NCBI GenBank assembly: GCA_965200715.1
Contig: OZ241374.1
Coordinates: forward strand, 2,917,031 to 2,981,030
Source: Arenicellales bacterium
GTDB lineage: Bacteria; Pseudomonadota; Gammaproteobacteria; Arenicellales; Poriferihabitantaceae
Reading direction: 5' to 3'
DNA: 64,000 nucleotides
Below are positions 1,147 through 63,546 of this stretch, in pieces (the first letter of the stretch is position 1; every line of letters starts with the position of its first letter). The notes under the pieces are model-generated. The model ran no database searches. It saw nothing but the letters and a program-made list of their open reading frames with translations, and had not been told where the DNA came from. The position numbers were made by a program, and so were the translations under genes.

Positions 1147-1167
1147 AATTCTCTGTTTGTTGGTATA

Positions 1168-1199
1168 GAAAAAAACCGGGGCAGTTACGCCCCGGTTTG
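1168..1199 (-). terminator. Rho-independent terminator of the conserved CCGGGG-N8-CCCCGG family
   Basis: On the minus strand: ACCGGGGCGTAACTGCCCCGG followed by a T7 run, 16 nt downstream of the stop of 1215..3728. Confidence 0.8.
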
Positions 1200-3728: not shown

Positions 3729-3756
3729 TGTTTATTCCTCTTAAATTAAATCGGGC

Positions 3757-4755
3757 TTAGAAGTCGTAACGAATGCCAATCCAGTGCTTGACTTGGTCGT
3801 CACTGCCGGCCACATCATTGTCGGTAGATCCGCCCTCATACCAGAGACGCAATCCACCGCCCATGTTGTGATACAGGCCAGCGGCAATCTTGCTGGGTTC
3901 GGCGGTTGATCCTTCGGTTTCCGACATGGAGTAGCCAAGCCATCCCGAAGTACTGTCGGAAAAGCTCATACCCACATAGCTAGTGACATACTCCTTATCG
4001 GGCTGGGCAACCCCAGAACTGTTTTCTGATTCATGTCTGCTCCATCCCAAAGATCCCCAGAATTGACCAAGCGAAACCTTGCCGGTAATCGCTGCGCGGT
4101 TATGCTCTAATCCATGTTTAGCAGTGGTGGCCGGAATGGACTTGAATGCTCCATTTTCGCTACCTGCCATTTCAGGCATTGCGGGGGTGACGACGATCTC
4201 AGTCTGATCGTCCACATCAAAGGCGGCTGCAACCGTCACATTATCCGTTGCGGCAACGCGGACACCAATACCGCCGCCATTACCGGACAGGTTGGCACCT
4301 TCACCGCCCTCATCACCGAGACGCAAATCTGCTTCTAAGGACAGCGGGCCGACTGAGTTGGAATACTTGATGGTATTGGGAGATCGAAAAGGAGTCGGAC
4401 TACCCACCGGCCCGACCGTGTAGGTTGGATCAAGATCAACCCCGACCGAGTTGTAGAAGGCACTCCACTGGTTACCGACATCAACCCGTCCGAAACCACC
4501 GGAAATCCCGGCCGTAGCAATCCGGGTAGAGGTGATACCACCGGCACCGTCATCGGTATTGGTAGCAAACTCGTAATGACCATGAGCGGTCAGACCGTTG
4601 CCCAGATCAGAACTGGCTTTGACTCCAAACCGAGAGCCAACGCCCTGGATGTCAGCCGTTGAGTCATTCGAGCCGCCCGTGTCCTCCAGGACAATTGCGT
4701 TGTTGATACGACCGTAAACAGTCGCCTCCGCCTGGGCTCCAAGCGGGATCATCAC
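3757..4755 (-). CDS. Gram-negative porin family beta-barrel (OmpC/PorB-like); 5' start unresolved
   Basis: EATVYGRINNAIV, GSRFGVKASSDLGNGLTAHGHYEF, NTIKYSNSVGPLSLEADLRL, alternating amphipathic strands, C-terminal IGIRYDF. The ORF-track start is a GVM-internal GTG that leaves only 8 aa before the AQA|E cleavage-like site. Confidence 0.85.
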   Translation of the reverse strand: MMIPLGAQAEATVYGRINNAIVLEDTGGSNDSTADIQGVGSRFGVKASSDLGNGLTAHGHYEFATNTDDGAGGITSTRIATAGISGGFGRVDVGNQWSAFYNSVGVDLDPTYTVGPVGSPTPFRSPNTIKYSNSVGPLSLEADLRLGDEGGEGANLSGNGGGIGVRVAATDNVTVAAAFDVDDQTEIVVTPAMPEMAGSENGAFKSIPATTAKHGLEHNRAAITGKVSLGQFWGSLGWSRHESENSSGVAQPDKEYVTSYVGMSFSDSTSGWLGYSMSETEGSTAEPSKIAAGLYHNMGGGLRLWYEGGSTDNDVAGSDDQVKHWIGIRYDF

Positions 4756-9307: not shown

Positions 9308-11172
9308 ATGAACAGTCCAGTTAAGCCCTCGAAATCCGATCCACCGCTGCTCAATTTGCGCCTGGTGCGATACGATGAAATGGCGCAATACGATGATTTC
9401 ATGGATCAATACCATCGTCGTGGTGCCTTGAGACGGATCGGTCACGAGCTGCACTATGTGGTGGAAGATCGGGGGCAGTGGATTGCACTGATCAGTTTTT
9501 CTCCGGCCGCGCTGAAGTGTTCGGCCCGAGATCAGTGGATTGGCTTGATCTCGCAAATCCAGAACGACCGGTTGCGGTTTATCGTGAACAATTCGCGCTT
9601 CCTGATTTTGCCCGGTCATGCTGTTCCGAATCTGGGCTCGCGGATTCTGTCGACCTGCCGCAAGCGGCTTGCGAGTGACTGGATGAGGCATTTTTCCCAA
9701 CCGTTGTTATTGCTTGAGACCTTTGTTGATACGGATTTCCACGTGGGAACGATTTATCGTGCCGATAACTGGGTGTTGGCGGGAAAGACCCGAGGCTACC
9801 GGCGGGTGCATGGTGGCTATAGTCCGACTCCGACCGAGTCGGTCAAGTTGGTATTTGTGAAACCCCTGCATGCGGATGCCCAGGTGATCTTGCGAGCCCA
9901 GCCGCTTCCGGATGTGGATCAATATCGAGTGAAGAAGATGAATTTGGCAATTGAAGACTATGGTTCCCTGTACGACTATTTCCAGGGCATGAAGGATGTT
10001 CGCAGTCGCCAGGGCAGACGGCATGAACTGGCCAGCGTATTGTCCCTGATCGCTGCGGCGATGTTAAGTGGTGCGATCGGGTATAAGGGCATCTGGATCT
10101 GGTGCGATGAGTTGTCGCAGGCCAATCGTCGGCATTTCCACTGTCGAAGATGGAGAGGCAAGCGAATCACCCCTTCCATCACCTGTATTCGCAATACCAT
10201 GATCCAGGTGAATCCCGACCGACTGCAACAGCTGGTCAACCGGTTCAGCATCCAGCATTTCGGTTTGCCTTTTGAGCCGCTTGCGATTGATGGCAAGGTG
10301 CTGTGTGGTTCGAAAGGCGAGCACCATCGTCAGACCCAGGTTATGAATGTGGTGGGGCATGATAGTGGGTTTTGCTATGCGAAAAAAAAGTAGGGACGTT
10401 GCCGGTTGAGGGATCAGACGAGGAGAAGCAGTCGAACGAGATCAAGTTTTTCGCCCCGACTCTTGAGCAGATGGATATTGCCGGAAGGACGATCACGGCG
10501 GACGCGATGAATACCCAGATTGCATCGGCCAATTACATGATCGAACGCGGGGCGGATTTTCATTTTTCGGTCAAGGGCAACCAACCCGGTCTGCTCGAGG
10601 ATATCCAGGTCTGGTATGAGCAGCAAGGTCAGTTTCAGGAGCCGGATTTCGAAGAGCCGTTGGAGAAAGATCATGGGCGCATCACGCAACGCAAGATCTG
10701 GGTAACCGATCGGTTGAATGAATAGGTTGAATTCCCACATGTACAACCGGTATTTGTGATTGAGCGAAACGTCAAGGACCCCAAGGGGGAAAATCCAGAT
10801 CGTGTCGAGATCGTGTATGGCATCACCTCGCAGCATCAGGATCAGACAACCGCAGAAGAAATTCTGAAAACCAATAGAGGACATTGGTCGGTCGAGACCG
10901 CCCATCAGGTGCTGGACAATCCGCATGCCTTTGATGAGGACGGCAGCCGCATCCGCTGTGGGCACGGTCCGGAAAACATGGCCTGCATGCGACGTCTTGC
11001 CCTGACCCTGCTGCGCTATTATCAGCAGCGCAATCGTCAACCGATCACGGAACAGATCGAACGACTCAAGTACAACCCGCGACGCGTGCTTGACTATCTC
11101 CGGCTGACTGGCAACACCCGGCCCAGAAGGCGATCACCAACCGAGTGTTGGCCGCTATCGCTGGCTACCTAA
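9308..11172 (+). pseudogene. ISAs1-family (H-repeat-like) DDE transposase with N-terminal DUF4338-like domain, disrupted
   Basis: Three ORF pieces: 9308..10393, 10372..10725 and 10756..11172. N-terminal ARDQWIG..NNSRFLILP..LLLETFVD is homologous to the N-termini of the two 782-aa transposases. AIDGKVLCGS and ITADAMNTQ..FSVKGNQPGL are ISAs1 hallmarks. There is a frameshift at an A8 run (10382-10389) and an in-frame TAG at 10726. Confidence 0.75.
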
Positions 11173-15038: not shown

Positions 15039-15064
15039 CAGAGGTCGTTTCTGCCGCGGTGATG
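15039..15064. repeat. Invariant 26-nt porin 5' element
   Basis: CAGAGGTCGTTTCTGCCGCGGTGATG, with the left arm as GACAGA. Confidence 0.9.
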
Positions 15065-15997
15065 TTGCCTATCGGGGCACAGGCGGATGTGTCCATTTAC
15101 GGGCGCATAACGAACGGAATTAAGTACGTTGATCCGGCGGAACCTGGTGCCGATTCAACGACCGATGTCCATAGCTATGGTTCACGATTTGGCTTTAAGG
15201 CCAATTCCGATCTGGGTAACGGCATGACTGCAATTGGTCATTTCGAGTTCCAAGCCAGTACCGACAATACAGGTGCCAACGCTGACGGGCTGGGGAATAT
15301 GAAAACCCGGCTTGGATATGTCGGGGTTGAAGGCGGATTCGGGAAAGTCACAATTGGCAACCAATCCGCGGCGTTTTATAACAATGTTCACTTTGATCGC
15401 AGTTTCTGGAACGGCGGACACGGAGGCTATCCGGGTAGCCGCTCTTCCAATACGATTAAGTATTCCAATGCCGTAGGGCCGTTAAGCTTTCAAGCCGACT
15501 TAAGAGTCGATGCTGCAGATGATGGAGCATATGAAGCAAATACCGAAGGTTTAGGCAAAGGCAATGGTGGAGCTTTGGGTTTACAAGCCGCATTATCCGA
15601 CAACCTGACTTTGGGATTTGGTTTTGACACTCAAGACCAGGCAGATATGACCGATGGCACGGAAACCGATGTTTTTGGCATGTCCGGGCTAGCTACCTTT
15701 GGCCAATTTGATGTTTCGCTAGCCTATGCAAACAAAGAAGTGTCTGGTGAAGAAGATACCCAGCTCATGCAGTTATGGGCCAGTGCAAGCCTAACCGATC
15801 AAACTCTTGCGCGGGTTGGATACGGGCAGGAAGATCAGGACGAAAGCGAAGCAACGCCAAGCACTCTGACCGCAGTATTGATTCACAATCTTGGAGGCGG
15901 TTTTCGAGTTTGGTATGAAGGCAATGCCACAGATGACGATGTAGCTGATATGGATACCAAAGTAACCCATGAATTTGGCTTGCGGTTTGACTTCTAA
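15059..15997 (+). CDS. Gram-negative porin family beta-barrel; 5' start unresolved
   Basis: DVSIYGRITNGIKY, GSRFGFKANSDLGNGMTAIGHFEF, NTIKYSNAVGPLSFQADLRV, C-terminal FGLRFDF. The upstream in-frame codons run into TGA without any ATG, GTG or TTG. Confidence 0.85.
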   Translation: MMLPIGAQADVSIYGRITNGIKYVDPAEPGADSTTDVHSYGSRFGFKANSDLGNGMTAIGHFEFQASTDNTGANADGLGNMKTRLGYVGVEGGFGKVTIGNQSAAFYNNVHFDRSFWNGGHGGYPGSRSSNTIKYSNAVGPLSFQADLRVDAADDGAYEANTEGLGKGNGGALGLQAALSDNLTLGFGFDTQDQADMTDGTETDVFGMSGLATFGQFDVSLAYANKEVSGEEDTQLMQLWASASLTDQTLARVGYGQEDQDESEATPSTLTAVLIHNLGGGFRVWYEGNATDDDVADMDTKVTHEFGLRFDF

Positions 15998-16026
15998 CCC
16001 CATATTGATTTAGAGGAAATTAAACA

Positions 16027-17223
16027 ATGAAACAAAATATTTTTATAGCGGCCCTATTGGCCGGTATGCTGGCACTCGCGGGTTGTGGGGGCGGAAGTAG
16101 TTCAAACAACAGCGGCGGTAATGATGACAAGACGCCACCTCCGCCACCACCGCCAACTACCACGAAAACCGCGGGCGTTCCAAATAATCTAGTAGTCCGA
16201 GGCGGTACGGCCGGACTATCGTTTAACCTTGCTACCGGTGAACTTCGGTTTATTGAAGGTTATTGGTTTAGATGTACAGGTGGAACCTGTGCCGGATCTG
16301 TGGCCGCTGGCGCACAGGTTGGCACAGTTTCTTACACTGGAACAGGGACTCTTGAGATTCTTACAAGCAACCCAACTCTGGCGGATTCAAGTACTGGTAA
16401 TATAGATCAGCCAACCGAATCTACCGATCCATTGAGTAATGATGTATTGCTTAAAGCGCTTCGAGGCACAGGTAGAGTTGCCACTGACAATACAGTTTGG
16501 AATGTCGGAGAAGGTGCTGGAACACGGCCCACTAACGGCACCACATTGCCATTTACCCCTTTAGATGGTTCGCGAATAGATCTAACGATTAGTGCGGCCG
16601 GAAGTTCCAACGACGCTTATTTTGGTCATTGGGTAAAGAGCACGGCAGACCTTACCAGCTCAGGAGATCAAGATACTCTTGTAAATCGGAACCTTGGTGA
16701 TCGAGGAACTGTATGGGGCGGGGCAATGCCTTATGGGAAAAAGCCTGACACTTCCCTAGGAACGGCCTCTTACGATGAAGATGATGCAGTATTGCTTTAT
16801 TTCAGTGGCAACGGAAGAACATGGACGAACGCTACTGGAAACCTTACTTTTAATGCCAATTTCGAAACAGGCATGGTAGGCGGAAATATCGTTGTAGTTC
16901 CCGGAGGTGCTACTGGACTTGTAGCGGCAACCGACAACATTGATCTTATGGCTACCATGATCGGAAATGATGGTAAGTTTTCTGGCTCTGCCAGCTTTAC
17001 CAACTCTAATGTTAGGCGTGATTCTGGTAGTTGGAACGGAGGGTTTTTTGGTCCTACAACAACAGTTACTGGAACACCGCCGGCAGAAGCTCATGCACCG
17101 CCAGATTTTGTAGCGGGTGCGTTTAGTGTTTCAAGGCCAGCGATCGGAACATCTACTACAGTTAGTGCAACAGCACAAAACCAGTTGCACATTCGCGGTG
17201 CATTTGGAGCAGACGACGGATAA
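16027..17223 (+). CDS. Surface lipoprotein with TbpB-like C-terminal region
   Basis: MKQNIFIAALLAGMLALAGCGGGSS lipobox, a PPPPPPP linker, C-terminal GGFFGP..AGAFSV..IRGAFGA. Starts 29 nt after the porin stop. Confidence 0.8.
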   Translation: MKQNIFIAALLAGMLALAGCGGGSSSNNSGGNDDKTPPPPPPPTTTKTAGVPNNLVVRGGTAGLSFNLATGELRFIEGYWFRCTGGTCAGSVAAGAQVGTVSYTGTGTLEILTSNPTLADSSTGNIDQPTESTDPLSNDVLLKALRGTGRVATDNTVWNVGEGAGTRPTNGTTLPFTPLDGSRIDLTISAAGSSNDAYFGHWVKSTADLTSSGDQDTLVNRNLGDRGTVWGGAMPYGKKPDTSLGTASYDEDDAVLLYFSGNGRTWTNATGNLTFNANFETGMVGGNIVVVPGGATGLVAATDNIDLMATMIGNDGKFSGSASFTNSNVRRDSGSWNGGFFGPTTTVTGTPPAEAHAPPDFVAGAFSVSRPAIGTSTTVSATAQNQLHIRGAFGADDG

Positions 17224-17234
17224 CTAACCAACCA

Positions 17235-17262
17235 AACCGGGGCGTAACAACCCCGGTTTTTT
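17235..17262 (+). terminator. Rho-independent terminator (conserved family)
   Basis: AACCGGGGCGTAACAACCCCGG followed by T6. Confidence 0.85.
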
Positions 17263-17335
17263 CTATACCGAAACCCCAAACCCATACGGCGGATCGGTTT
17301 GATCCCGTCAAGCAACTATCCCATAAGAAGAAGAA

Positions 17336-18556
17336 ATGAAACCGAAATGCTCAATAGCGATCCTGTTGACCACAATGCTAGCCTTAACAGGTTGCGGGGG
17401 TGGCGGATCGGGCAATGCTGAGCCAGGCAATGAAGCAGCACCACTAGCAAGCGTTTCCAGTACCGGAATACACCACTACGGCATTGATTCGGATGCCCGC
17501 CGGGACTACCGGCGATCCATGTATGATGACTGCGTAGCAGAGAGAGGCCGGTCGCGCTGTTCCCTATCCGGTCGTGGATGGTTTTACCGCTGGAACCAAT
17601 TGCCGAAAGTACATATTTCCTCAAACACTACACAGGAGGGAATATGGGCAATTCGGAGGACAATCGGCATCCTCAACCGTTCTCTACCTGAGGAATACCG
17701 GCTTAGTTACGAAACAACCAACCGGACATTTTCTGGTGTGGATAGGGATGACAGGACATCCCGTGTCGAGTCTCTTGTGCCGAGGGGCGTGATTCATGCG
17801 GAGATCTACCCCTATGATGACCCAGAGTTTAGCGGATGGGCTTGGACCGATGGCGAACGGGGCTATGCCCTTGGCGATGAGACCGATCTTGACCTATCCG
17901 ATCCCTTGGACATGTCCTTTGCGGTGGAGACCATGGCACATGAGTTCCTGCATGCTCTCGGGCTGGTCGCACACCCACAGGAAATCCACACGTCCATCAT
18001 GTCCTATCGCTATCACTCTGAAGGAGAAATTGAGAGAGTGCCGCTGATTGATGTTGCCATGCTCCATGACCTATACGGCTGGGGATTCTGGGATGGGGAA
18101 ATGAAAAGGGTTACCGAGCATGAGGGTGGAGTGCATTTCGGGGTAGATAACCTGCATCGAGGGACTGCCGTCATTCCATGGGTGGATGCAAGATACCTAG
18201 CGGCTCCAAGACCGAATGAATTATCAGATAGTGCATCATACGATGGAACCTTAGTCGGATATGCTACGAATGGAACTGCCCTATATGGTGACTCAGATCT
18301 CAGCATTAACTTTAATCGAGGAACGGGAGTGGCCCGTTTTCACCGGATTACAGACTGGGATGGCAATTCTTGGAATCGAAGTGGCTATCGCTATGATCTC
18401 AGTCTATATGGCCATTACTTCGATTCGACCATAGATTCACAGGATCAAGATGGTATTCTAGATGTGGTCGGGGCGTTCTATGGGTTTGAGGCAGAAACCG
18501 CAGCAGGTACACTTCAAAGACCGGAGATTACCGCCGCTTTTGGTGCGGTTAAGTAA
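17336..18556 (+). CDS. Zinc-metalloprotease lipoprotein (metzincin/serralysin-like) with TbpB-like C-terminal barrel
   Basis: 406 aa. Lipobox LALTGCGGGGS, HEFLHALGLVAHPQEIHTSIMSY (HExxH..G...H plus an SxMSY Met-turn), C-terminal ASYDGTLVGYA..DLSINFN..GVARF..VVGAFYG..AAFGAVK. Confidence 0.85.
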   Translation: MKPKCSIAILLTTMLALTGCGGGGSGNAEPGNEAAPLASVSSTGIHHYGIDSDARRDYRRSMYDDCVAERGRSRCSLSGRGWFYRWNQLPKVHISSNTTQEGIWAIRRTIGILNRSLPEEYRLSYETTNRTFSGVDRDDRTSRVESLVPRGVIHAEIYPYDDPEFSGWAWTDGERGYALGDETDLDLSDPLDMSFAVETMAHEFLHALGLVAHPQEIHTSIMSYRYHSEGEIERVPLIDVAMLHDLYGWGFWDGEMKRVTEHEGGVHFGVDNLHRGTAVIPWVDARYLAAPRPNELSDSASYDGTLVGYATNGTALYGDSDLSINFNRGTGVARFHRITDWDGNSWNRSGYRYDLSLYGHYFDSTIDSQDQDGILDVVGAFYGFEAETAAGTLQRPEITAAFGAVK

Positions 18557-19161: not shown

Positions 19162-20971
19162 TTATGGTTGCTCAACGGCTCCGAATGCGCCGCGATGTCG
19201 TATGTAGGTAAATCCTTCAGGATCAGGATCGGCTGTACTATCATTTTCGGTGGCGGTATTGAGGGTTGTATCAGTGCCATTTGGCTGATAGTCAAAATCA
19301 CCGACAATCCATCGCCCTTGATGTACAAACCTTGCGTTCCAGTCACCAGAATCTTCACTTTGACCATTGTTTATATTGCCAGAGGCCATATAGTTACTGA
19401 TAGCACCTTCCTCAAAGGCTATGGTGTCAGTTGGAATCGGATCATCGTGCCTTCCTCTACTTATGCTTCCGTTAAGAGTATTGTTATCAAAATCAGCAGT
19501 CAATGTTATCTCTCCAATCCAAGGTAAATATTGAGGATCATATACAGGATTTGTGATATCTCCGTCACTTTCTGTAATACCCACAACATCACCTCTATAG
19601 CTTGCCGTTCCAGTTTTCGCACCGAGATACTCCCTTCCGGTTGCGGGTGCGGGGTCATTACCACCAATAGCCGCACCCCCCTCAATAAGTACAGGAACGG
19701 AATCGGTATTGCCAACTATTATCCCACTATCCGAAACCCAGGCCCCAAAACCCATGCGGTCATCGTCATCAAAATCGTTGGCAGCATCATCTTTTGACTT
19801 GCCATATACGGCTATGGCGTATATATTATTACCAGTGTTCTCCGCTCCTCTACCCGGTGCTACAGAAGTCTCGCTAGTTACGCTAATCCAGCCGTGAGTA
19901 TCAACTACCGTAACTTCATGACTTGCACCGCCAAGACCAGAGGATATGTCGATTGTCCATCGGCCCATAGTACCATCACCATTATCGAAAGTAGCATCAT
20001 ACTCAATCTCGGTTGTAGGTCGGTCTGCTAGCACTTCGGGCTGTTCTGGCATCCCAGGAACGTTAGCCCTTATCGCATCGAGACGGGCGGTATAACTCAA
20101 AATAGTACCATCTCCGACCAGCAATTCGTGAGCTTCGGTGTTATCCACACCATCCGCCATGAGTGCTGTTAGTAGCGCTGCATGAAATTCTTCAATATCC
20201 GTAATATCAGTAGTCATGGGAGTTGCTCCTGACTGTTCCTGAACTTCCAGCGCAGTTTTCAGATTCATAACCGCGGTGTTCAATGTCATCTGAGGTGGAA
20301 ACGCAAGCCTTATCGCAGCGAGACGCTGGACATAAGTCATACTAGCCGGAGTACCCGCATCAGCAGCAGTATCTCCGTTCAGCAGATTTTGGGCGGTAGT
20401 ATGCTCTGGGCTACTATCTACACCAGTATCCAGATTGCCTAAGAGGTTTCGTAACATTGTACGTGCAGATACAATGTCCCCAATTTCCTTAGCTGTTGGA
20501 ATTCCATCTTCACCTTCGTCCAATGCCGTCATGAGTGCTGCGGCTGCTTTTCCCAGATCCGCCGCGCTCGTTTTAGCTGGAGGCGGTGGTGGCGGTGGTG
20601 GAGGCCCACCATTACTAGCGACCACCTGATTATCCTCACCCTTTATCTTCTCGAGGCGGCCTTCATACCCATTCAATAGCATGGTGATCTGATCGGTTTT
20701 GGTATCTACTCCGTCCGCCGCATCCTCGATGGCCTTGTCAAGTTCCCCTTTCGCTGTTTCAATGTCCGCAATCTGCTCAGACGTGGGGGTTGTTGCAGCT
20801 TCGGCCTTCTTCAATGCGGTATCTAGTTTCATGACCGCATCATCCAACTTCGTTTGGGCGGCTTGCCTAACTGATTCAGTATCGTCAAGGGTGCCGCCCC
20901 CCCCCCCCTCCGCAACCTGCCAGGGCTAACATGGCCGCCAGTAGTGCGGTTATCAAAATATTCTGTTTCAT
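19162..20971 (-). CDS. Surface lipoprotein with TbpB-like C-terminus; out of frame at a poly-G tract (putative phase-OFF)
   Basis: ATG at 20971 gives MKQNILITALLAAMLALAGCGGGGG, then 12 G put the reading frame into a TGA. The 561-aa body (19162..20847) is in the frame that 11 or 14 G would restore. C-terminus GTASYRGDVVGITE..LTADFDNNTLNGSI..GDWNARF..RHRGAFGAVE. Confidence 0.8.
20897..20908. repeat. Homopolymeric tract, 12 C on plus (12 G in the gene sense)
   Basis: Counted directly: gccg + cccccccccccc + tccgc. It lies 3 codons after the lipobox Cys. Confidence 0.95.
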
Positions 20972-21047
20972 TATTGATTCCCCCTTAAAGGTTCTAGGAA
21001 TGCCCAGCTTTTCATGCTGGTTCCGGTTTCAAACTGATAGAAAAAAA

Positions 21048-21067
21048 CCGGGGTTGTTACGCCCCGG
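21048..21067 (-). terminator. Rho-independent terminator (conserved family)
   Basis: Minus strand: ACCGGGGCGTAACAACCCCGG followed by T7, 17 nt after the stop at 21084. Confidence 0.85.
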
Positions 21068-21083
21068 TTTGTGTTAAGCGTTA

Positions 21084-22439
21084 TTACTTGGTAGCTCCGA
21101 ATGCGCCGATTATTTCGGCTCGGTTGTTGGTTATATCGAATTGACCGGTTACATGGTTTGGAACTTGATCATCACCTACATCATGAAAATGAACATTACC
21201 CCAAGTTCCAGATTCTGGATCGTTATCGCCTATTTTCCATTCGGCAATGGCAGTTATACCGTCATAATTAGTTAAAGCACTTATGTTTTGTGTGCCGCCA
21301 CTACCATCAGATTCTGTAGAGGTTAATGAGATGGACCAACCCGCTTTTTCCTTGCCATCAACCATGAATTTGTCAATCGTGCCTTTTAGCGTATTCACAG
21401 TAGCATCGAAATCAGCCGTAAGCTTCGCATTGGCAGTGAAATGACCGGATTCATGCGCCTTTGGTACTTCACTGTATATGGCATACTTGCCCGCCGCTCC
21501 GCCTTCGTAGGTTGCTGTTCCGGTAGTAGCTGCTACTTCGCTAAATCTCCTTGCATCAGCATCAGCAGCAGCAGTTCCAGTAGTTCCAGAAAATACGTTT
21601 ACTTGGTATTTATCACCAGTTGCACCCGTATCAAGCCACCATCCGTAATAGGCATATACATTTTTCGGATCGGTTACTTTGCTATCTGCTGAAGTGGGGG
21701 TAAACGTCCAAGTCCCAGTCAACGCTCTTTTTTCATCGGCATGTTTTGTAATAAAGCAGGTGCTGACAGTGCCTGTACAATCATATTTGCCCGAAACACC
21801 ATAATATGACCCTTGAATAGTAAATCCACCACGTATCAAATCTGCTGCTTTGAAAGCATGCCTGCCTGAAGTGCCGGTTATACTGGGAATGACTATCCGG
21901 TCTGTTGGAGCGGCACCAGAAAAATCAAAACTAAGGACGCTACCAGCCGCAACTCCTGTTACCCCGGGGTCTTCAGTTCTTGCGGAAAAATCAGTAGGAA
22001 ATTCTGTACTAAACTTCATTCCTTCCCCTTTTGCATTGGCCCGCCAGTAGACGCGCGCTTCCTTCTTGTCCTTTTTGAAATAGCCGCCAGTCCATCCGTT
22101 GTTAGCTGATACGCTATCGGTTGTTTTGGCCAAGTCATCAGTACCTTGTTCAACCTTTGTTCCATCAAATGTAATCGTGCTAGGTGCAGGTGTACCAATC
22201 GCAGCGTGCAGTTTCTTGGCCATGGTCTCGGCATCCTTACCTTGTTCTTTGGCTAAATCATCTTGCGCTTTTTCTAGATCTTCCTTAAGTTCCTTATTCT
22301 CATCTTCAAGCTCACTAATCTTTTCTTTGTCTGGATCAGTCGGCGGATCCTGCTGCACCGTGCTGCTGCTCCCGCCCCCGCAACCTGCGAGTGCCAGCAT
22401 ACCGGCTAATAGGGCCGCTATGTATATTTTCTGTTTCAT
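21084..22439 (-). CDS. Surface lipoprotein with TbpB-like C-terminal barrel
   Basis: 451 aa. MKQKIYIAALLAGMLALAGCGGGSS, SYYGVSGKYDCTG..WTFTP..YYGWWL handle-like motif, GTATYEGGAAGKYA..GHFTANAKLTADF..LKGTIDKF..GTWGNVHF..AEIIGAFGATK. Confidence 0.85.
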   Translation of the reverse strand: MKQKIYIAALLAGMLALAGCGGGSSSTVQQDPPTDPDKEKISELEDENKELKEDLEKAQDDLAKEQGKDAETMAKKLHAAIGTPAPSTITFDGTKVEQGTDDLAKTTDSVSANNGWTGGYFKKDKKEARVYWRANAKGEGMKFSTEFPTDFSARTEDPGVTGVAAGSVLSFDFSGAAPTDRIVIPSITGTSGRHAFKAADLIRGGFTIQGSYYGVSGKYDCTGTVSTCFITKHADEKRALTGTWTFTPTSADSKVTDPKNVYAYYGWWLDTGATGDKYQVNVFSGTTGTAAADADARRFSEVAATTGTATYEGGAAGKYAIYSEVPKAHESGHFTANAKLTADFDATVNTLKGTIDKFMVDGKEKAGWSISLTSTESDGSGGTQNISALTNYDGITAIAEWKIGDNDPESGTWGNVHFHDVGDDQVPNHVTGQFDITNNRAEIIGAFGATK

Positions 22440-22468
22440 TGTTTATTTCCTCTTAAATTGAATCAGGC

Positions 22469-23383
22469 TTAGAAGATGTACCGAAGTCCGATACGGTGGA
22501 TTGCCTCGTAGCTTTCCCTGAGTGCTGCATCATCGTCATCGTCGTTGACCTGTCCTTCATACCAGATTGCTAGGCCGCCGCCCATGTTGTGGAATACACC
22601 GAATGTGGTTGCGGTTGGAGTAGCCTCTCCTCCATCGTCTTCTTGGCCGTAACCAAAATGAACGGAAGTACCATCGGCAACATCTGCACCTAACCACAAA
22701 GTGGTGTAGTCAGTATCGCTAGTAGTTTTGCCCGCCGCATCGGTTTTTTCATTGTTTGTCCATCCCAGAGCACCCCAGAATTGGCCCAGACTAACCTTTC
22801 CAGAAACACCAATCCAATCGCTATCTTTGCTTTCATGCTCGGACATTTCAGCAGCAAATCCTAGTTCAATGTTGTCCGTCAATGACGCTTTGAGGCCAAT
22901 CGCTCCACCATTGCCTGCTGGACCCTGGATATCTGTATCGCTATCGTTGGCTTTCAGGTCAACTTGCAAACTCAAAGGACCAACAGCATTTGCGTACTTT
23001 ATTGTGTTGGAATGCCTAGCTCCGGTAGTTCCACCGATTCCGCCTTCCCAGATGCTCTGATCCATGTGCAACGATCCCTTGAACGCTGCTCCCTGACTCC
23101 CGATCGTAACCTTGCCGAAGCCGCCGGAAAGCCCGACAAAACCAAGACGGGTTGTGTTCTTTCCTGTGGACTGATCGGCAGCAACCTGAATTTCAAGTTG
23201 AGCGTGCCCAACCAGACCGTTTCCAAGATCGCTATTGGCCTTGAATCCAAACCGTGAGCCAAGACTGTCTACATCAACTGTTGACTCTTTGTCACCTTCA
23301 TAGCTCTTGCTAACTAGCGCATTATGAACATGACCGTAAACCGTCAGTTCGCTTTCCGCTTGTACACCAAGCGGGATCATCAC
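22469..23383 (-). CDS. Gram-negative porin family beta-barrel; 5' start unresolved
   Basis: LTVYGHVHNALV, GSRFGFKANSDLGNGLVGHAQLE, NTIKYANAVGPLSLQVDLKA, C-terminal IGLRYIF. Confidence 0.85.
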   Translation of the reverse strand: MMIPLGVQAESELTVYGHVHNALVSKSYEGDKESTVDVDSLGSRFGFKANSDLGNGLVGHAQLEIQVAADQSTGKNTTRLGFVGLSGGFGKVTIGSQGAAFKGSLHMDQSIWEGGIGGTTGARHSNTIKYANAVGPLSLQVDLKANDSDTDIQGPAGNGGAIGLKASLTDNIELGFAAEMSEHESKDSDWIGVSGKVSLGQFWGALGWTNNEKTDAAGKTTSDTDYTTLWLGADVADGTSVHFGYGQEDDGGEATPTATTFGVFHNMGGGLAIWYEGQVNDDDDDAALRESYEAIHRIGLRYIF

Positions 23384-25049: not shown

Positions 25050-25149
25050 TGTCTCTTCAGTCTAAATCCTGTTATCAGGTTCTTTAGTTCCACATCTTTA
25101 CCCGGCTCTGCAATCCGATAACTTAACATCCTTCAAATCCCTCTTGTGG
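25050..25149. repeat. X flank module, inverted, abutting porin element
   Basis: The reverse complement reads CAAGAGGGATTTGAAGGATGTTAAG...GATGTGGAACTAAAGAACCTGATAACAGGATTTAG, homologous to 13701-13815. Confidence 0.7.
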
Positions 25150-26234
25150 CAGAGGTCGTTTCTGCCGCGGTGATGATCCCGCTTGGAGTTCAAGCGGATG
25201 TGACTGTTTATGGACGTATAAACAATGCAATTGAGCTTGATGATAAGGGAATGCAGCCAAACAAAGGGAAAACTGCATTGGAAGATAATGACTCAACGAC
25301 CGATGTAAGTACCATTGGATCGCGATTTGGCGTCAAAGCGAATTCCGATCTGGGCAATGGTCTGACTGCTCATGGTCATTATGAATTTGCGACCAATACC
25401 GATGACGCTGCGGGTGGAATCACGGCTACCCGTATTGCAACTGCTGGGCTTTCTGGCGGTTTCGGCAGGATTGACGTGGGCAATCAGTGGGGAGCTTTCT
25501 ACAATACGGTTGGCGTTGATATTGATCCGACCTGGTGGATTGGTCCGATTGCAGGTGCCACGCCTGGTCGCTCACCCAACACCATCAAGTATTCAAATTC
25601 GGTCGGTCCGTTGGCTTTGGAAGCGGATTTGCGATTAAGCAATTCTGCCGAAAATGTAAACGCTAAAGGCACCCCGGTGCTTTCCGGTTCGGGGGGTAGT
25701 ATTGGTGTTCGAGTTGCCGCTACTGACAATCTCACGCTTGCCGCCGCCTTTGATTTGGACGACCAGACAGATGTGGTGGTTACTCCTAAGATGGATGCAA
25801 AGTCGGGCGTTAATAAAGCGGGTACCGCACTTGCAGTCATCCCAGCAACGAAAGACGTTATGGGTCTTGAACATACACGTGCTGGCGTTTCTGGGAAGGT
25901 AACCCTTGGTCAGTTCTGGGGTGCTCTGGGATGGAGCAGCCATGAAGCCGAAAACGCAGCTGGGGTCACTCAGGCTGATAAAGAATTCGTTGCGGGCTAT
26001 GTGGGCATGAGTTTTAGCGACAGTAGTTCGGGCTGGATTGGCTATTCGCAGTCTGAAGAAGATAAGCCGAACACCCCGGAGCCAAGCAAGATTACGGCTG
26101 GCTTATATCACAACCTAGGCGGTGGTTTGCAGTTCTGGTATGAGGGTGCATCCGTAGATCCAGATGAAACGATTAATGGCCGTGAGGCAGACAACCATGT
26201 GACTCATTACATCGGCATTCGCTACGACTTCTAA
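25146..26234 (+). CDS. Gram-negative porin family beta-barrel; only a GTG start with an atypical signal peptide
   Basis: MAEVVSAAVMIPLGVQA|DVTVYGRINNAIE, GSRFGVKANSDLGNGLTAHGHYEF, NTIKYSNSVGPLALEADLRL, C-terminal IGIRYDF. There is no SD and no basic n-region. Confidence 0.85.
   Translation: MAEVVSAAVMIPLGVQADVTVYGRINNAIELDDKGMQPNKGKTALEDNDSTTDVSTIGSRFGVKANSDLGNGLTAHGHYEFATNTDDAAGGITATRIATAGLSGGFGRIDVGNQWGAFYNTVGVDIDPTWWIGPIAGATPGRSPNTIKYSNSVGPLALEADLRLSNSAENVNAKGTPVLSGSGGSIGVRVAATDNLTLAAAFDLDDQTDVVVTPKMDAKSGVNKAGTALAVIPATKDVMGLEHTRAGVSGKVTLGQFWGALGWSSHEAENAAGVTQADKEFVAGYVGMSFSDSSSGWIGYSQSEEDKPNTPEPSKITAGLYHNLGGGLQFWYEGASVDPDETINGREADNHVTHYIGIRYDF
25150..25175. repeat. Invariant 26-nt porin 5' element
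   Basis: CAGAGGTCGTTTCTGCCGCGGTGATG, preceded by GG, which gives a perfect GGCAGA/TCTGCC palindrome. Confidence 0.9.
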
Positions 26235-26260
26235 CCCGTATTGATTAAGAGGAATAAACA

Positions 26261-27769
26261 ATGAAACAGAAAATATACATAGCGGCACTATTGGCCGGTA
26301 TGCTGGCACTCGCAGGATGTGGGGGTGGAAGTAGCACAGTGGAGGTAACGCCTGCTACAGTAACGGCCGCGCAAACAGCGATAACAGCAGCCAATACTGC
26401 TGTTGATGCTCTAACCGCAACATCAGATCAAGTTGACGTTAATGCGGCAGATGGTTTGATAACAGCCGCAGAAGAAGCAATCGCAAAAGCCCCGGAAGGA
26501 GAACGAGCGACCTTAACTGCAATGCTTGCTGATTCCAATCGACAAATTGCCATTCATAATGATCGATTCACGGATGACGGCATAACCCCAGCTCAATTAG
26601 CCGAACTTTGCAAGGCTGATGGGGTCACTGTTAATGATGCTGGAGATGGTTGCATAGCAGATACAAGCATTGCAGATCAAACAAAGAAAGAAGCGGACTA
26701 TCTTGCTATTTTCAATGCCTTGAATGGACCTATTATTGGAGCGGCAACGGCCACTCAAACAAGTTTTACTAGTAGTTGGGATGGAAGTACAGCAGTTTCT
26801 TACACCGAGGCAGATGCCGAAGATCAAGATAACCACAAATCTGCATCGATTTCAATGCAGGGAGCTAAATTTAGTGAATTAACTACTGGATCAGAAGGCA
26901 ATGGAGTAGAAAGGAACAGTGATGGTGATGATGATATATTAGAGCTTACGGATGGCGCTGATAAAGATTACGTTATGTTTTCCGGGATATCAACCGGCCA
27001 ACAGGAAACGCATGAAAAGAAAAACATAGTAAAGGTTGGTGGCACTGATATGATAGCTTTTGTAGTTTCAGGATCATATCGCGGTGTTACGGGAACATAT
27101 CAATGTACTGGTGCAGACTGCACAACAAGCTTAGCCGGTGATGCTGCTGGCAATTTAGTGTTTGAAGGCACATGGCAGTTTAAAGCAACGGATGAGGACG
27201 CTCGGATAACCGATCAGGATGTTGTTACCTATGGCTGGTGGACTAATACAGCTTCTGCGCCGGGCAGTGTTCTACAAGCCGGATTATTTTCCGATAGGGA
27301 AAAAACAGGGCATGTCGATGCTCGCTACGCTGGCGGTGGTTCGGCAACCTACAAGGGTGAAGCTCTTGGTCAGTATGTGATGAGCGCGGATAATTTTGGA
27401 GCATTTACTGCGGATGCTACCCTAACCGCAGACTTCACAGGTACAAATACTTTGGAAGGTATGATAAACGGCTTTAAGGATGCTGATGGTGGAGACTTGA
27501 CGGGTTGGGAAGTTAAACTGCATAAAACCAACATAGCTGTTAATGGAACATTTTCCGGTACACAGACAGGAGCTGAAAATGCAAGGCAAGCAAGATGGAA
27601 CATCGGCGATAAAAAGGGAGCAGCAGGAAATTGGCAGGGGGCCCTATATGGCCCAGAAGGCACTAGTACTAATAAATATCCTACTCACGCCGCAGGAGAA
27701 TTTAGTGCACAGCATGGGCCTACTGGGCGCATGATCGGCGCATTTGGGGCCGAACTGGAAAGTAACTAA
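26261..27769 (+). CDS. Surface lipoprotein with TbpB-like C-terminal barrel
   Basis: 502 aa with the same lipobox. SYRGVTGTYQCTGADC..WQFKA..TYGWW, GSATYKGEALGQYV..FTADATLTADF..LEGMINGF..GNWQGALYGPEG..GRMIGAFGAE. Starts 26 nt after the porin stop. Confidence 0.85.
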   Translation: MKQKIYIAALLAGMLALAGCGGGSSTVEVTPATVTAAQTAITAANTAVDALTATSDQVDVNAADGLITAAEEAIAKAPEGERATLTAMLADSNRQIAIHNDRFTDDGITPAQLAELCKADGVTVNDAGDGCIADTSIADQTKKEADYLAIFNALNGPIIGAATATQTSFTSSWDGSTAVSYTEADAEDQDNHKSASISMQGAKFSELTTGSEGNGVERNSDGDDDILELTDGADKDYVMFSGISTGQQETHEKKNIVKVGGTDMIAFVVSGSYRGVTGTYQCTGADCTTSLAGDAAGNLVFEGTWQFKATDEDARITDQDVVTYGWWTNTASAPGSVLQAGLFSDREKTGHVDARYAGGGSATYKGEALGQYVMSADNFGAFTADATLTADFTGTNTLEGMINGFKDADGGDLTGWEVKLHKTNIAVNGTFSGTQTGAENARQARWNIGDKKGAAGNWQGALYGPEGTSTNKYPTHAAGEFSAQHGPTGRMIGAFGAELESN

Positions 27770-27782
27770 TAAACCAACATAA

Positions 27783-27808
27783 ACCGGGGCGTAACAACCC
27801 CGGTTTTT
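27783..27808 (+). terminator. Rho-independent terminator (conserved family)
   Basis: ACCGGGGCGTAACAACCCCGG followed by T6. Confidence 0.85.
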
Positions 27809-27889
27809 TCTATCTGTTGGGAACGGTAACCCGCATGGAAAGCTGGCCATTCCCAGATCATGAACTAGAACCTGTAAGAGGGAATCAAC

Positions 27890-29709
27890 AATGAAACAGA
27901 ACATTTTACTATCCGCCCTGTTGTCGACCATGCTGGTGATTGCAGGTTGCGGTGGAGGCAGCTCCTCGGATGGCGGTAAGATTGAAGATGGGCGGTAAGA
28001 CCCTGAGTGAAATCTACCAGTCTGCAATCACCGATGGGGAGGAACACACGTTTGATATGGTATTGTCCGCATCGGTTCTTCAGAATCAAGATTCTGACAA
28101 TCCTTCAACTTCGATTCCTGAAAACAACGAATTATCAGTTTCACAAATCGTGAGGAATGAGGATGGTGGTTATGATGTCACCTACCGCATTGATGATTCT
28201 TCTGAGACTGTAACTTTCTTGCCTAGTGATTGTAACAATCAAGATGAAGAATGCGTTTTATCGAATGAAGAAGGTCAACGAGAATTTGATATTTGGGCAA
28301 TGCCTAGTACGGAAGAAGGTACAGGTCAACTCGGCCCCGCCGCAAATCTTGTCTATCATAATATCAAACATTTTCAAGTTCATGGAACAACTTCTAGCGA
28401 TGAAAGAATTCTTCACAAGCAAATATTTGTCTTTGGCGTAACGACTCCAGAGTCAAATCAACCCAAAACGGGAACGGGAACCTACTACGGTTGGTTTTTC
28501 GGTTATGCGAATCGAATGACAGAGGCAGGTAATGCCTTCCGGCAACGAATTATGGCAGACATGCAGTTGGTAGCGAATTTTGACATGAACACCATCAATG
28601 GGGATTTGACTGGGGTTGAAGGAACACCACCAGGAGGAAATAACAATTCATGGGAAGATTGGCAGGAGGAAAGTCGTTTTGAAATCACCGGTACTGGAGT
28701 GAATTCAGCGGGGCAGTTCACGGCTACCGTAACCGGGATGGATGCTTCTACTGCGGATGACGTTGAAAGTGTACGGGGATTCATGGGTCAACTCACAGCG
28801 CAATTATTTGGCCCGAATGCCGAGGAAATTGGCGGGGTATTGAGTGCATCTCGTGATTTGGACGGTGATGATAATGACCTTGCTTTGTATGGTTATGTTT
28901 CGAGTACCAAATTCGGCCCTGCCAAGATACTTAGTTCCGAAGGTGTATCCGTTGGAGTCAAAAGAAATTTTGAGGAGAGTAAGACCGAACTACAGGAACA
29001 AGGCGAGGTCAAAATTATGAGAGATGCCGGTGATAGTGGTTGGGTGCTCACTACTGATGCTCGTACAGTCGAATTCGAAGACGAAGATTACCGGTATGGA
29101 GAGGGAAATTATTTTCGAGCTAGTGCTGCAGATGACGCGCAAGATGGCGATTATTTTTGGACGAATACTAATGGTTTTTTCGTTACCCCTGACTATGATT
29201 ACTTCGACATCAAGGGCTGGGCAAATAATCATGACAATCCAGGGATTTGGGTAAACAGTTTTATCATTCATGGTGATCGGACACCCATCTCATCCCTGCC
29301 TTTTTCAACCGCGACCTATCATGGGCGGATGCACGGTCGAGAGTTTCCATCTGATGATGCAATTAGTTGGATATCCGAAGCAAGGCGTTATCAAGGTGAT
29401 TTGACTCTGACCGCAGATTTTGCAAATACGAGTGTGATGGGTGAGATAACGAATCTAGAAACTCGAGTAGGAAATAGCGGTAGTTATAGTGACATTCAAG
29501 GAGGTGCTCGTTTCAATGCATCGATCACTGGTCACAATTTCACGGCTGATGATTTTAGTGGAACAGGGGATATATCGAATCTACAAAATGGCAATGTCTA
29601 CGGTTCGTTTTTTGGTCCTACAGCCCAGGAAGCCGGTGGGGTTTTTGATGCGGACCTTGGAAGCGACGTTGTCGTTGGTTATTTCGGTGCAACTCAGGAG
29701 AATGAATAG
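27890..29709 (+). pseudogene. Bilobed TbpB-like surface lipoprotein, frameshifted just after the lipobox
   Basis: ATG at 27890 gives MKQNILLSALLSTMLVIAGCGGGSSSDGGKIEDGR, then TAA at 27995. The 589-aa body (ORF 27940..29709) is in another frame. There are two barrel-like lobes, each ending in a FGP..AEE.GG motif (QLFGPNAEEIGGVL and SFFGPTAQEAGGVF..VVGYFGA). Confidence 0.8.
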
Positions 29710-29829: not shown

Positions 29830-31049
29830 ATGGAACAGAAACACACAATAGTGATCCTATTAGTCTTAATGCTTACCCTTGTAGGCTGTGGGGGCGGTTC
29901 TATCGGTATTGACAGCTCTATCCGGTGAACCAAACCGGACGCGAGCAAGGCGCGGTTTCATGGTCTGAGGCACACCACAAAGGCATTGGTCCTGATGCCC
30001 GTCAAGATTACCGTCAAGCGATGTATGAGGATTGCACGCTTGACCGTGAGGACTGTTCCTTATCTGGAGATGGATGGTTTCATGCTTGGAACCAATTACC
30101 CGAAGTTCATGTATCCTCAAATAGCACACAACAGGAAGTCTGGGCAATCCGGAGGGCAATCGGCATACTCAACCGATCCCTTCCCGTGGAATATCGGCAT
30201 ACCTATCAAATAACCCGCCGAACCTTTTCCGGCGTGGGTAGGGATGATCAGGTAGAGCGTTCCAAGTCTCTTGTACCGGAGGGTGTGATTCATGTAGAGA
30301 TTTATCCGTATGACGATCCAGAATCCGGCGGGGTAGCATGGACGAATGGTGAAAGGGGTTATGCGCTTGGAGATCGGGTCAATTATGATCTTTCTACCCC
30401 TCATGGCATGAGGGCTTTGATCGATACCATGGTGCATGAATTCCTTCATGCTTTCGGCCTTAGCGGGCATCCACACGCAGTGCATACCTCGATCATGTCT
30501 TATCGTCATCACAGGGAAGGAGAGCTAGACAACGTACCCCTGTATTGATGTGGCCATGCTCTATGACCTCTATGAATGGGGCTATTGGGATACCGACATG
30601 AAAAGGGTAGCAGATCATGCGGGCGGGGTACATTTTGGAGTACACAGTTTGCACCAGGGAACGGCCGTCATTCCGTGGGTAGATGCCGGACACATAGCAC
30701 CCCGAGATTGGATGAGCTGTCAGGCCGAGCATCGTATAGCGGCACCCTGATTGGATATGCTGATGACGAACCTGTACATGGTGACGCAGATCTCAGCATT
30801 AACTTTAATCGAGGAACGGGAGAGGCCCGTTTTCACCGGATTGCGGACTGGGATGGCAATTCTTGGAATCGAAGTGGCTATCGCTATGATCTCGGCTTAT
30901 ATGGCCATTACTTCGATTCGACTATAGATTCACAGGATCAAGATGGTATTCCAGATGTGGTCGGGGCGTTCTATGGGTTTGAGGCGGAAACCGCAGCCGG
31001 TACACTTCAGAGGCCGGAGATTACCGCCGCTTTCGGTGCGGTTAAGTAA
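29830..31049 (+). pseudogene. Zinc-metalloprotease lipoprotein paralog, multiply frameshifted
   Basis: Pieces at 29830..29928 (MEQKHTIVILLVLMLTLVGCGGGS), 29925..30548 (HEFLHAFGLSGHPHAVHTSIMSY), 30550..30750 and 30576..31049 (..AAFGAVK) lie in different frames. Collinear with <1..1146. Confidence 0.85.
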
Positions 31050-31185
31050 GGATTCGTTTTTTCAGTTTTCAGCTTAGTTGTAATTCAGTTTTTCAGTTCT
31101 TCGCAACGATCCTGAAACACCTTTTTAGCAGCTTATAACAAATTGGTTTCAACGCTGATTACCCTTCCAAGCAGATAGAAAAAAA

Positions 31186-31205
31186 CCGGGGTTGTTACGC
31201 CCCGG
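31186..31205 (-). terminator. Rho-independent terminator (conserved family)
   Basis: Minus strand: CCGGGGCGTAACAACCCCGG followed by T7, downstream of the stop at 31227. It could also serve the convergent plus-strand gene. Confidence 0.8.
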
Positions 31206-31226
31206 TTTGTATAGTTTGGTTATTGG

Positions 31227-32750: not shown

Positions 32751-32781
32751 TGTTTATTCCTCTTAAATATTGAGATCAGCC

Positions 32782-54881: not shown

Positions 54882-54907
54882 CAGAGGTCGTTTCTGCCGC
54901 GGTGATG
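54882..54907. repeat. Invariant 26-nt porin 5' element
   Basis: CAGAGGTCGTTTCTGCCGCGGTGATG. Confidence 0.9.
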
Positions 54908-55921: not shown

Positions 55922-56058
55922 CCGATATTGATTTAGAGGAAATAAACAATGAAACAGAAAATATACATAGCGGCCCTATTAGCCGGTATGCTGGCACTCG
56001 CAGGTTGTGGGGGTGGGGGTAGCTCTGGTGGAGGTGGTAATCCTCCGGGGGGCGGACC

Positions 56059-63526: not shown

Positions 63527-63546
63527 CCGGGGTTGTTACGCCCCGG
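63527..63546 (-). terminator. Rho-independent terminator (conserved family)
   Basis: Minus strand: CCGGGGCGTAACAACCCCGG followed by T7, downstream of the partial gene's stop at 63612. Confidence 0.8.

Follow-up and report, generated by a model that had tools for sequence, protein, structure and literature searches.

A metzincin-like protease domain joined to a TbpB-type barrel in an undescribed family of bacterial lipoproteins

What might a lipoprotein be doing that carries a zinc-protease motif behind its lipid anchor and that then ends in a barrel of the sort found in transferrin-binding protein B? That question is raised by a 64,000-nucleotide stretch of DNA from an Arenicellales bacterium (contig OZ241374.1, positions 2,917,031 to 2,981,030 of the forward strand), the whole of which is referred to here as the window. 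Particularly, the open reading frame (ORF) found at 17336..18556 (+) of that window possesses an ATG start and encodes a lipoprotein of 406 amino acids. It is one of four related copies, A, B, D, and F, and is itself copy B. Judged from its sequence and from structure models, the product of copy B is very probably an active, metzincin-like lipoprotein protease bearing a TbpB-type barrel. A fuller version of this reading, i.e., one in which that protease is also displayed on the cell surface and acts on substrates external to the cell, we consider to be probable as well, if with appreciably less assurance. The family to which copy B belongs, that is, lipoproteins consisting of a metzincin-like domain plus a barrel, is real, conserved, and undescribed. 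It is not something categorically new, being instead an unmodelled metzincin-like family found within a new fusion of known kinds.

Does copy B possess a plausible zinc site? The motif in question, HExxHxxGxxxH, is found at 17939..17974 (+) as H202-E203-x-x-H206-x-x-G209-x-x-x-H213, at the start of the longer sequence HEFLHALGLVAHPQEIHTSIMSY (17939..18007). Upon six-frame translation of the window exactly four instances of this motif are seen, i.e., at 17939, 30435, and 62473, plus at 523 on the minus strand, which amounts to one per copy, and in 100 shuffles none is seen. Plain HExxH, by comparison, occurs nine times in the window versus about four times as expected. Among 38 close homologues, sharing 41-90% identity, the residues H202, E203, H206, A207, G209, H213, P214, S223, and Y224 are invariant, with H218, T219, and S220 nearly so. 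Among 41 more distant relatives the only invariant columns, besides that of the start Met, are the motif's His, Glu, His, and His. The initial annotation of this locus had named nonconservation of the catalytic Glu/His residues in orthologues as grounds for abandoning the assignment, and this is not what is found, those residues being invariant across both sets of relatives. Identification of the motif draws as well on an alignment to a matrix metalloproteinase (MMP), MMP-14, which includes a one-residue gap and is described below.

The spacing of this motif is unusual, the third His being found, just as had been noted initially, one residue later than is canonical. Of 149 motif instances, 135 possess that later, +7 spacing, among them every one of the 48 from the close family, with the canonical +6 spacing seen in only 10, all of them from distant relatives. 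By these sequence counts the shifted third His is a hallmark of the family rather than an oddity of the copy B gene. Following the third His is a turn, S220-I-M222-S-Y224 (17993..18007, +), which resembles the SxMxY of serralysins and astacins and which had been put forward as a serralysin-style SxMSY Met-turn. This feature is recognized on the basis of conservation and is located within a loop that is modelled at low confidence. All four of the window's copies possess Met222, and S-[IVL]-M is retained by many distant relatives. Position 222 nonetheless is Leu in 39 of 48 members of the close family and Met in only nine of them, and the Met-turn as first described consequently holds for the window's copies but not for the majority of their close relatives.

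Does the surrounding domain possess a fold that is consistent with such a site? A full-length AlphaFold2 model, which was built on a 38-sequence family alignment, has a mean predicted local distance difference test (pLDDT) score of 81.4 and a predicted template-modelling score (pTM) of 0.80, with low confidence seen only over residues 4-37 and over the loop consisting of residues 216-229. Within this model an MMP-like catalytic domain, identified from AlphaFold2 models along with Foldseek searches, spans residues 91-250 (17606..18085, +). That domain begins with a strand (91-95), which is followed by a helix (100-114), another strand (125-128), an extra helix (137-147), and then three further strands (152-158, 167-171, and 175-181). 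Next comes active-site helix B (190-207), which bears H202-E203-x-x-H206, and eventually helix C (237-247), with the loop between helices B and C supplying G209, H213, H218, and S220-I-M-S-Y224. The order of these elements is that of the metzincin fold, i.e., a five-stranded sheet, helix A, an active-site helix B, and a C-terminal helix C. Preceding the catalytic domain is an N-terminal extension (17450..17605, +), which is recognized from predicted secondary structure (strand 40-46, helix 52-70) and from invariant columns. The mature chain's only cysteines, the invariant C66 and C75, are found within this extension's DDCVAERGRSRCS, one at the helix's end and one just past it, with a spacing of nine residues; from their placement in the sequence, a Cys66-Cys75 disulfide is probable.

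Because a full-length Foldseek query matched barrels only, the N-domain (residues 38-296) was modelled separately as well, with a pLDDT of 71.9. All 50 of the 50 best PDB matches to this separate model are MMP-type catalytic domains, including those of MMP-1, -2, -3, -8, -12, and -13 along with that of the bacterial protease karilysin, at E-values from 4.6e-5 to 1.3e-3 and with template-modelling (TM) scores of 0.44-0.57 as normalised to the target. As far as fold is concerned, the AlphaFold check proposed with the initial annotation has returned a metzincin layout. Comparisons of sequence profiles against PDB sequences point in a similar direction, the majority of matches being metzincins. 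A profile of the close family's N-domain yields weak matches to leucurolysin, snapalysin, and serralysin, while the protease portion of a profile of the distant relatives matches MMP-14 (E 0.0016), stromelysin-3, MMP-1, astacin, myroilysin, leishmanolysin, and karilysin. Covered by the MMP-14 alignment are the zinc helix as well as the third His, followed by the S-I-M turn and then by helix C (LP..D....LY), with the family possessing one extra residue relative to MMP-14 (HALGLagH vs HALGL-EH). The Pfam family Peptidase_M10 (PF00413) is reached by 6 of 41 distant relatives, with a best E-value of 6.9e-8, and at E<0.1 by only 3 of the 38 close relatives. SprT-like Pfam matches in three distant relatives were set aside as motif-level similarity only. 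Uninformative, and not used, was an hhalign comparison of the N-domain profile with one MMP-8 catalytic sequence, which aligned 13 columns around HExxH at a probability of 5%.

The four copies themselves are of two subtypes, as initially annotated, with the zinc motif found in each. Subtype I consists of copy B (17336..18556, +), which is identified as an intact protease-barrel lipoprotein gene from its ORF, homologues, AlphaFold2 model, and comparison with copy F, and of copy F itself (61891..63111, -), an intact paralogue. These two are 93% identical as proteins and 93.5% identical as DNA, the latter similarity reaching about 300 nt downstream. The ratio of nonsynonymous to synonymous substitution rates (dN/dS) between them is 0.19 overall, 0.25 for the N-domain, and 0.13 for the handle plus barrel, and it is on the basis of that 0.19 that both intact copies are seen to be under purifying selection. 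Subtype II is represented by copy A (<1..1146, i.e., 1..1146, -), which is in frame, has a TTG start at 1146 yielding MKAILLALMLALVGC, and has lost its C-terminus to the window's edge, and also by copy D (29830..31049, +), which upon comparison with an intact orthologue (P0009) displays three frameshifts, near 29905, near 30548, and at about 30720. Copy D, as read from its sequence, is either a pseudogene or an error-laden copy.

How firmly, then, may copy B be called a metzincin, and an active one? Various points weigh against doing so. The metzincin consensus, HEXXHXXGXX(H/D), is not matched by the copy B motif, and the Met of the Met-turn is replaced by Leu in most close relatives. Model confidence is low (pLDDT <50) for the loop of residues 216-229, to which His218 through Tyr224 belong, and similarity to the MMP fold is moderate, with TM scores of about 0.5 and E-values of 1e-4 to 1e-3. 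Scores against existing family models in addition fall below cut-offs, i.e., 15.2 bits vs 24 for Peptidase_M10, 15.6 bits vs 26 for Pfam TbpB_B_D (PF01298), and 20 vs 80 for NCBIfam slam_lipo (NF041636). Indeed, among Pfam and NCBIfam models none reaches threshold for copy B, with the 38 family members likewise falling below.

From these same features (non-canonical spacing, loss of the turn's Met in most close relatives, a low-confidence active-site loop, and sub-threshold scores as a protease) it might be argued that the protein is catalytically dead or otherwise non-proteolytic, that is, a zinc- or ligand-binding lipoprotein with a leftover zincin-like motif. That argument has to contend with the strict invariance of His, Glu, His, Gly, and His among relatives that are otherwise only about 20-45% identical, as well as with the N-domain's dN/dS of 0.25. 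Dead enzymes, moreover, typically lose the Glu, while replacement of the Met-turn's Met with Leu is tolerated in engineered metzincins. A dead or non-proteolytic protein we consequently view as decidedly unlikely. What remains of the original assignment to the metzincins is the MMP-like fold along with the invariant zinc-motif residues. As judged instead by motif spacing and by an invariant Met, this is not a textbook metzincin, because neither is kept across the family. By modelled fold and remaining motif, the protease domain is best described as metzincin-like, with MMPs closest.

As an active metzincin-like protease, copy B would have as its candidate zinc ligands His202, His206, and His213, with Glu203 serving as general base and with Tyr224 possibly acting as it does in astacins and serralysins. 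No cysteine-switch propeptide, i.e., PRCGxPD, is present in the copy B sequence.

What follows the protease domain? First comes a three-stranded beta handle, residues 255-284 (18098..18187, +), as recognized from AlphaFold2 secondary structure, which is found between protease and barrel. The barrel, located at 18230..18553 (+) and identified by Foldseek, is eight-stranded and of TbpB/NHBA/fHbp type, with its strands spanning residues 299-405 of the model and with the protein ending ...TAAFGAVK. In the full-length Foldseek search this portion matches the C-terminal domain of NHBA (6cuj) with an E-value of 2.7e-7 and TM of 0.69-0.73, as normalised to the target, and it matches also TbpB, LbpB, fHbp, the hemophilin HphA, and PmSLP, all at a probability of 1.00. 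The barrel portion of the distant-relative profile matches NHBA and HpuA. Suggestion of a TbpB-like barrel, made prior to any structural modelling, has therefore held up well.

The further suggestion that this barrel is the same as that used by the neighbouring lipoproteins requires qualification. The protease's barrel and those of its neighbours are of the same fold class and possess the same ...GAFGA terminal strand, but sequence similarity between them is lacking, the best BLASTP match having an E-value of 0.059. A barrel shared with those neighbours by way of recent duplication was rejected, given E-values of 0.059 or worse.

Where in the cell would such a protein be found? The copy B N-terminus, MKPKCSIAILLTTMLALTGC, is a lipoprotein signal peptide (17336..17395, +) with lipobox LTGC, i.e., L17-T18-G19-C20, in which the Cys20 codon is found at 17393..17395. 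This lipobox had been pointed to in the initial annotation, and its Cys is near-invariant among family members. Between Cys20 and the N-terminal extension there is a tether, residues 21-38 (17396..17449, +), which is rich in Gly, Pro, and Ala and is predicted to be disordered (pLDDT <50 over residues 4-37). The protein thereby would be lipidated at Cys20 and presumably sorted by Lol to the outer membrane. An eight-stranded barrel is a feature that is common to predicted Slam-dependent lipoproteins (PMC5449769), and the barrel of copy B may similarly be the module by which the protein is moved across the outer membrane. The result would be a protease that is tethered at the cell surface by its lipid anchor, a bacterial counterpart, that is, of membrane-type MMPs.

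Surface display in this manner has points against it as well. A Slam gene (DUF560) is not seen among the window's large ORFs nor within 7-10 kb of twelve homologous loci for which genes were listed, and some hosts of the family (Bryobacterales, Nitrospinota) are outside of the Proteobacteria, where Slam has been described. One alternative is that the protein faces instead the periplasm, as an outer-membrane lipoprotein protease concerned with envelope housekeeping (e.g., porin or lipoprotein quality control) and with its barrel serving as a binding or scaffold domain. The lack of Slam near any locus examined and the family's presence in phyla without described Slam both are consistent with that alternative, as also is the presence nearby of six porin genes in the window. 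The solved handle-plus-barrel matches, however, are surface lipoproteins or secreted hemophores (PMC5449769). The gene's locations furthermore are accessory or variable ones (the end of a prophage, or alongside transposons or defence genes) rather than among genes for envelope biogenesis, and its distribution is narrow and patchy (105 cluster representatives out of 1.84 billion), which is unlike that of housekeeping genes. A periplasm-facing role we therefore consider to be unlikely, and surface display of a metzincin-like protease to be preferred.

What does the enzyme cleave? The window suggests one possibility by virtue of the genes found alongside. Six genes for Porin_4-family porins are present, at 3757..4755, 15059..15997, 22469..23383, 25146..26234, 32782..33789, and 54902..55921 (as identified by family match), each of which precedes either a single variable lipoprotein or a pair of them, with C-termini that are TbpB-like, and this pairing is reminiscent of bipartite receptor systems, with porins replacing TonB-dependent receptors. 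The protease gene always is located between two convergent such units, the order being porin, lipoprotein(s), terminator, and protease, followed on the opposite strand by a lipoprotein and then a porin. The identical arrangement is found on a 3.2-Mb contig of a close relative.

From the constancy of that placement it may be proposed, as it was initially, that the protease is dedicated to processing or shedding of the neighbouring variable lipoproteins, cleaving their tethers or lobes so as to release or mature them. There is precedent in Neisseria, where NalP, a lipoprotein autotransporter protease, releases LbpB and NHBA. Gly-rich tethers, too, are similar between protease and lipoproteins. 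In copies A and D, moreover, the terminator is so near to the start codon that read-through from the lipoprotein operon is probable. These considerations nevertheless amount to adjacency, across an intervening terminator, and the linkage is seen in close relatives only. Homologues at 41-55% identity are solitary, found among housekeeping, mobile, or unrelated genes, and distant relatives are without a fixed partner. One cassette pair, in addition, retains only a frameshifted copy of the protease, while the protease is conserved and the lipoproteins highly variable, with no common cleavage motif identified among them. Shedding of cognate lipoproteins accordingly is a proposal which we view as improbable.

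Preferred instead is an enzyme acting on external substrates. The surface catalytic domain would cleave extracellular proteins, with host matrix and other host or environmental proteins as its likeliest targets, so as to acquire peptides or to modify the interface with the host. Going by the compared loci, linkage to porin and lipoprotein cassettes is lineage-specific, seen in close relatives only, and it would represent an add-on rather than a core function. Elsewhere, a homologue may adjoin a relaxase, transposases, or genes unrelated to it, a TbpB-like lipoprotein being close by in only some of these cases, and the settings of distant relatives include a TonB-dependent receptor plus defence genes, the end of a Mu-like prophage, and transposon or toxin-antitoxin genes. 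At that prophage end (L021, 8001..9365) the relative, P0074, is found directly after genes for a Peptidase_S24 repressor and for Imm_superinfect, and it may be phage-carried cargo.

How the protease comes to be expressed within its cassettes is a related issue. A strong intrinsic terminator, consisting of a hairpin plus T-run, AAACCGGGGCGTAACAACCCCGGTTTTTTT (17234..17266, +; from a terminator scan along with inspection of sequence), is found between the lipoprotein gene at 16027..17223 and the copy B gene, 70 nt upstream of the latter's start codon. Upstream of the protease start, copies A, B, and D each possess this same element, at a distance of 18-76 nt, with about 18 nt separating T-run from start codon in copy A and 33 nt in copy D. 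As that gap is only 18-33 nt, a dedicated promoter is unlikely in copies A and D, and with a terminator so close to the start codon the simplest reading of expression is one of partial read-through. Protease expression in the window's lineage thus would be low-level and alongside that of the porin-lipoprotein cassettes. The same G+C-rich hairpin terminator is seen to be reused after every lipoprotein gene, i.e., at 17234..17266, 21037..21071, 31175..31209, 1162..1199, 63521..63547, and 27736..27813.

How widespread is the family, and has it been recognized previously? A word-indexed search of 5.8 billion proteins returned 51 matches, all from metagenome assemblies, of which two are named 'hypothetical protein' and the remainder are nameless. 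A profile search of that same set recovered only the first sequence of its own query alignment, probably owing to low-complexity words, and was uninformative. In public assemblies the exact protein from the window was looked for and not encountered. An exhaustive hidden Markov model (HMM) search of 1.84 billion cluster representatives, using the N-domain profile, returned 105 matches at E≤1e-3, of which 17 reach E≤1e-10. Distant matches keep the full architecture, that is, lipobox, HExxHxxGxxxH, and a barrel ending GTLERxDLTAAFGAxR. Six of the 41 distant relatives that were scanned reach TbpB_B_D. A sister subfamily, seeded with P0077, consists of 112 clusters, and its one named cluster is a 'transferrin-binding protein-like solute binding protein', a name for which only the barrel had been recognised. 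Clusters of the distant relatives include two named members, both 'hypothetical protein'. In the literature, protease cargo on a TbpB- or Slam-type lipoprotein was not found, with neither a 2017 survey of Slam-dependent lipoproteins nor a 2020 review mentioning any. The original impression that there is no described equivalent is in agreement with these results.

Carriers include Ca. Poriferihabitans sp., which possesses three copies (66-69% identity), and also an Arenicellales metagenome-assembled genome (MAG), Ca. Poriferihabitaceae, several Alphaproteobacteria, a Boseongicola MAG, and, at 49% identity, a Bryobacterales MAG, with more distant relatives found in Nitrospinota and in other Gammaproteobacteria. 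Ca. Poriferihabitans belongs to the Arenicellales, which appear in papers on sponge microbiomes, and several of the host MAG series apparently are from sponge symbionts, going by their names. Such apparent host association, together with a patchy spread across phyla and location in accessory regions, fits with a host- or environment-directed function.

Quite tentatively, a still larger picture may be drawn, and one that we would rate as doubtful in its entirety. Copy B and its relatives, that is, could represent the founding case of enzyme cargo on a TbpB/Slam-type scaffold. This would be a lipid-anchored surface family of MMP-like proteases, marked by its own motif variant, HExxHxxGxxxH, which is horizontally exchanged among sponge symbionts of multiple phyla and which cuts proteins of the host, whether those of the extracellular matrix (ECM) or others. 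Among bacteria resembling Ca. Poriferihabitans that family would have become integrated with the variable cassettes of porin and lipoprotein genes, of which one or more may be phase-variable, as a cell-surface 'capture, cut and import' system for peptides.

Even the narrower reading has implications. The recognized role of TbpB/fHbp-type surface lipoproteins is the binding of ligands, i.e., iron, heme, factor H, or heparin. If it is indeed the case that a protease is carried on this type of scaffold, then the known uses of that export and display system would be widened. The enzyme is in addition a candidate effector at the sponge-symbiont interface, whether in matrix remodelling, nutrient release, or immune evasion. 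The shifted third zinc ligand along with the Leu-for-Met turn furthermore provide a natural test of what spacing and Met-turn contribute to metzincin catalysis.

The neighbouring lipoprotein genes display peculiarities of their own. In the lipoprotein gene at about 19162..20971 (-) there is a run of 12 G at 20897..20908 (minus strand), found right after the codon for the lipobox Cys, as a result of which, in this assembly, MKQNILITALLAAMLALAGC, a signal peptide starting at about 20971, is not in frame with the body of 561 amino acids. This run is a candidate slipped-strand phase-variation switch or, alternatively, a homopolymer assembly error. A comparable case of phase variation is the poly-G tract of hpuA in Neisseria. 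A poly-G switch within the protease gene itself was considered and rejected, the run there being only 5 G in length. For the second lipoprotein of one cassette, at 27891..29709 (+), signal peptide and body likewise are in different frames, i.e., with an ATG at about 27891, a stop at 27995..27997, and a body ORF from 27940, and because this is without an associated homopolymer it may be a pseudogene or silent copy. In a third, lipoprotein-like gene, at 59791..61236 (+), Ser replaces the lipobox Cys (...MLVIAGSGGGG...), and its C-terminal part is 89% identical, as DNA, to that of 19162..20847.

Upstream of these lipoprotein bodies there is greater uniformity. In six of six cassettes there is 84-88% identity over about 100 nt that span the porin stop codon and, past a short spacer, the signal peptide of the lipoprotein, while the lipoprotein bodies that follow are unrelated. 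DNA comparison places this junction at 16002..16103, 55925..56025, 26239..26334, 22366..22456, 32679..32766, and 3654..3749. From its conservation the junction could be a recombination anchor for the swapping of cassettes. Mobile elements also are present. The last of the porin genes (54902..55921) is followed by an insertion sequence, with its transposase at 56183..58531. That transposase (-), along with another at 51776..54124 (-), is a Tn5-like DDE transposase to which a DruA-like (Druantia) domain is fused N-terminally, and a shorter ORF of DruA plus DDE_Tnp_1_assoc is found at 9308..10393 (+). A 782-amino-acid DruA-DDE transposase of this type interrupts a porin gene at a related locus (L001).

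How, finally, does this family compare with systems that are already known? Its best structural match is to MMPs and karilysin (MEROPS M10A, PF00413), with which it shares the HExxHxxG...H zinc helix, a short spacing from third His to hydrophobic turn, and a C-terminal helix, LP..D......LYG. With membrane-type MMPs it shares also membrane tethering, though by lipid anchor rather than by transmembrane helix or glycosylphosphatidylinositol (GPI). The family differs from MMPs in possessing one extra residue before the third His, in lacking PRCGxPD, in its sub-threshold Pfam score, and in having an extra N-terminal segment with its Cys pair, an extra helix, and a fusion to a TbpB-type barrel. With serralysins and astacins (M10B, M12A) there is instead in common the 'HP' at the third His and S-x-M-S-Y with its invariant Tyr, a possible fifth zinc ligand. 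The turn, however, is found eight residues after the third His rather than about 30 or more, and the turn's Met mostly is Leu. Serralysins, in addition, possess an RTX beta-roll and a type I secretion signal, whereas here the C-terminus is a TbpB-type barrel and the N-terminus a lipoprotein signal.

NalP, which is listed among the neisserial surface lipoproteins (PMC5449769), is similar in being a lipid-modified surface protease, assuming that display occurs as proposed here, and in belonging to a bacterium that is rich in TbpB-type lipoproteins, and it is the precedent for shedding. It differs, though, in being a serine, subtilisin-like protease which is exported as an autotransporter and which lacks homology to the protein described here. 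The remaining comparison is with Slam-dependent lipoproteins and hemophores, i.e., TbpB, LbpB, fHbp, NHBA, HpuA, PmSLP, and HphA. With these are shared lipobox, Gly-rich tether, beta handle, and eight-stranded barrel with its ...FGA end, and also a logic of variable N-terminal cargo on a constant barrel. No partner in the form of Slam or a TonB-dependent receptor is seen here, the adjacent genes being instead those of porins, and the cargo, rather than a ligand-binding lobe, is what appears to be an enzyme.

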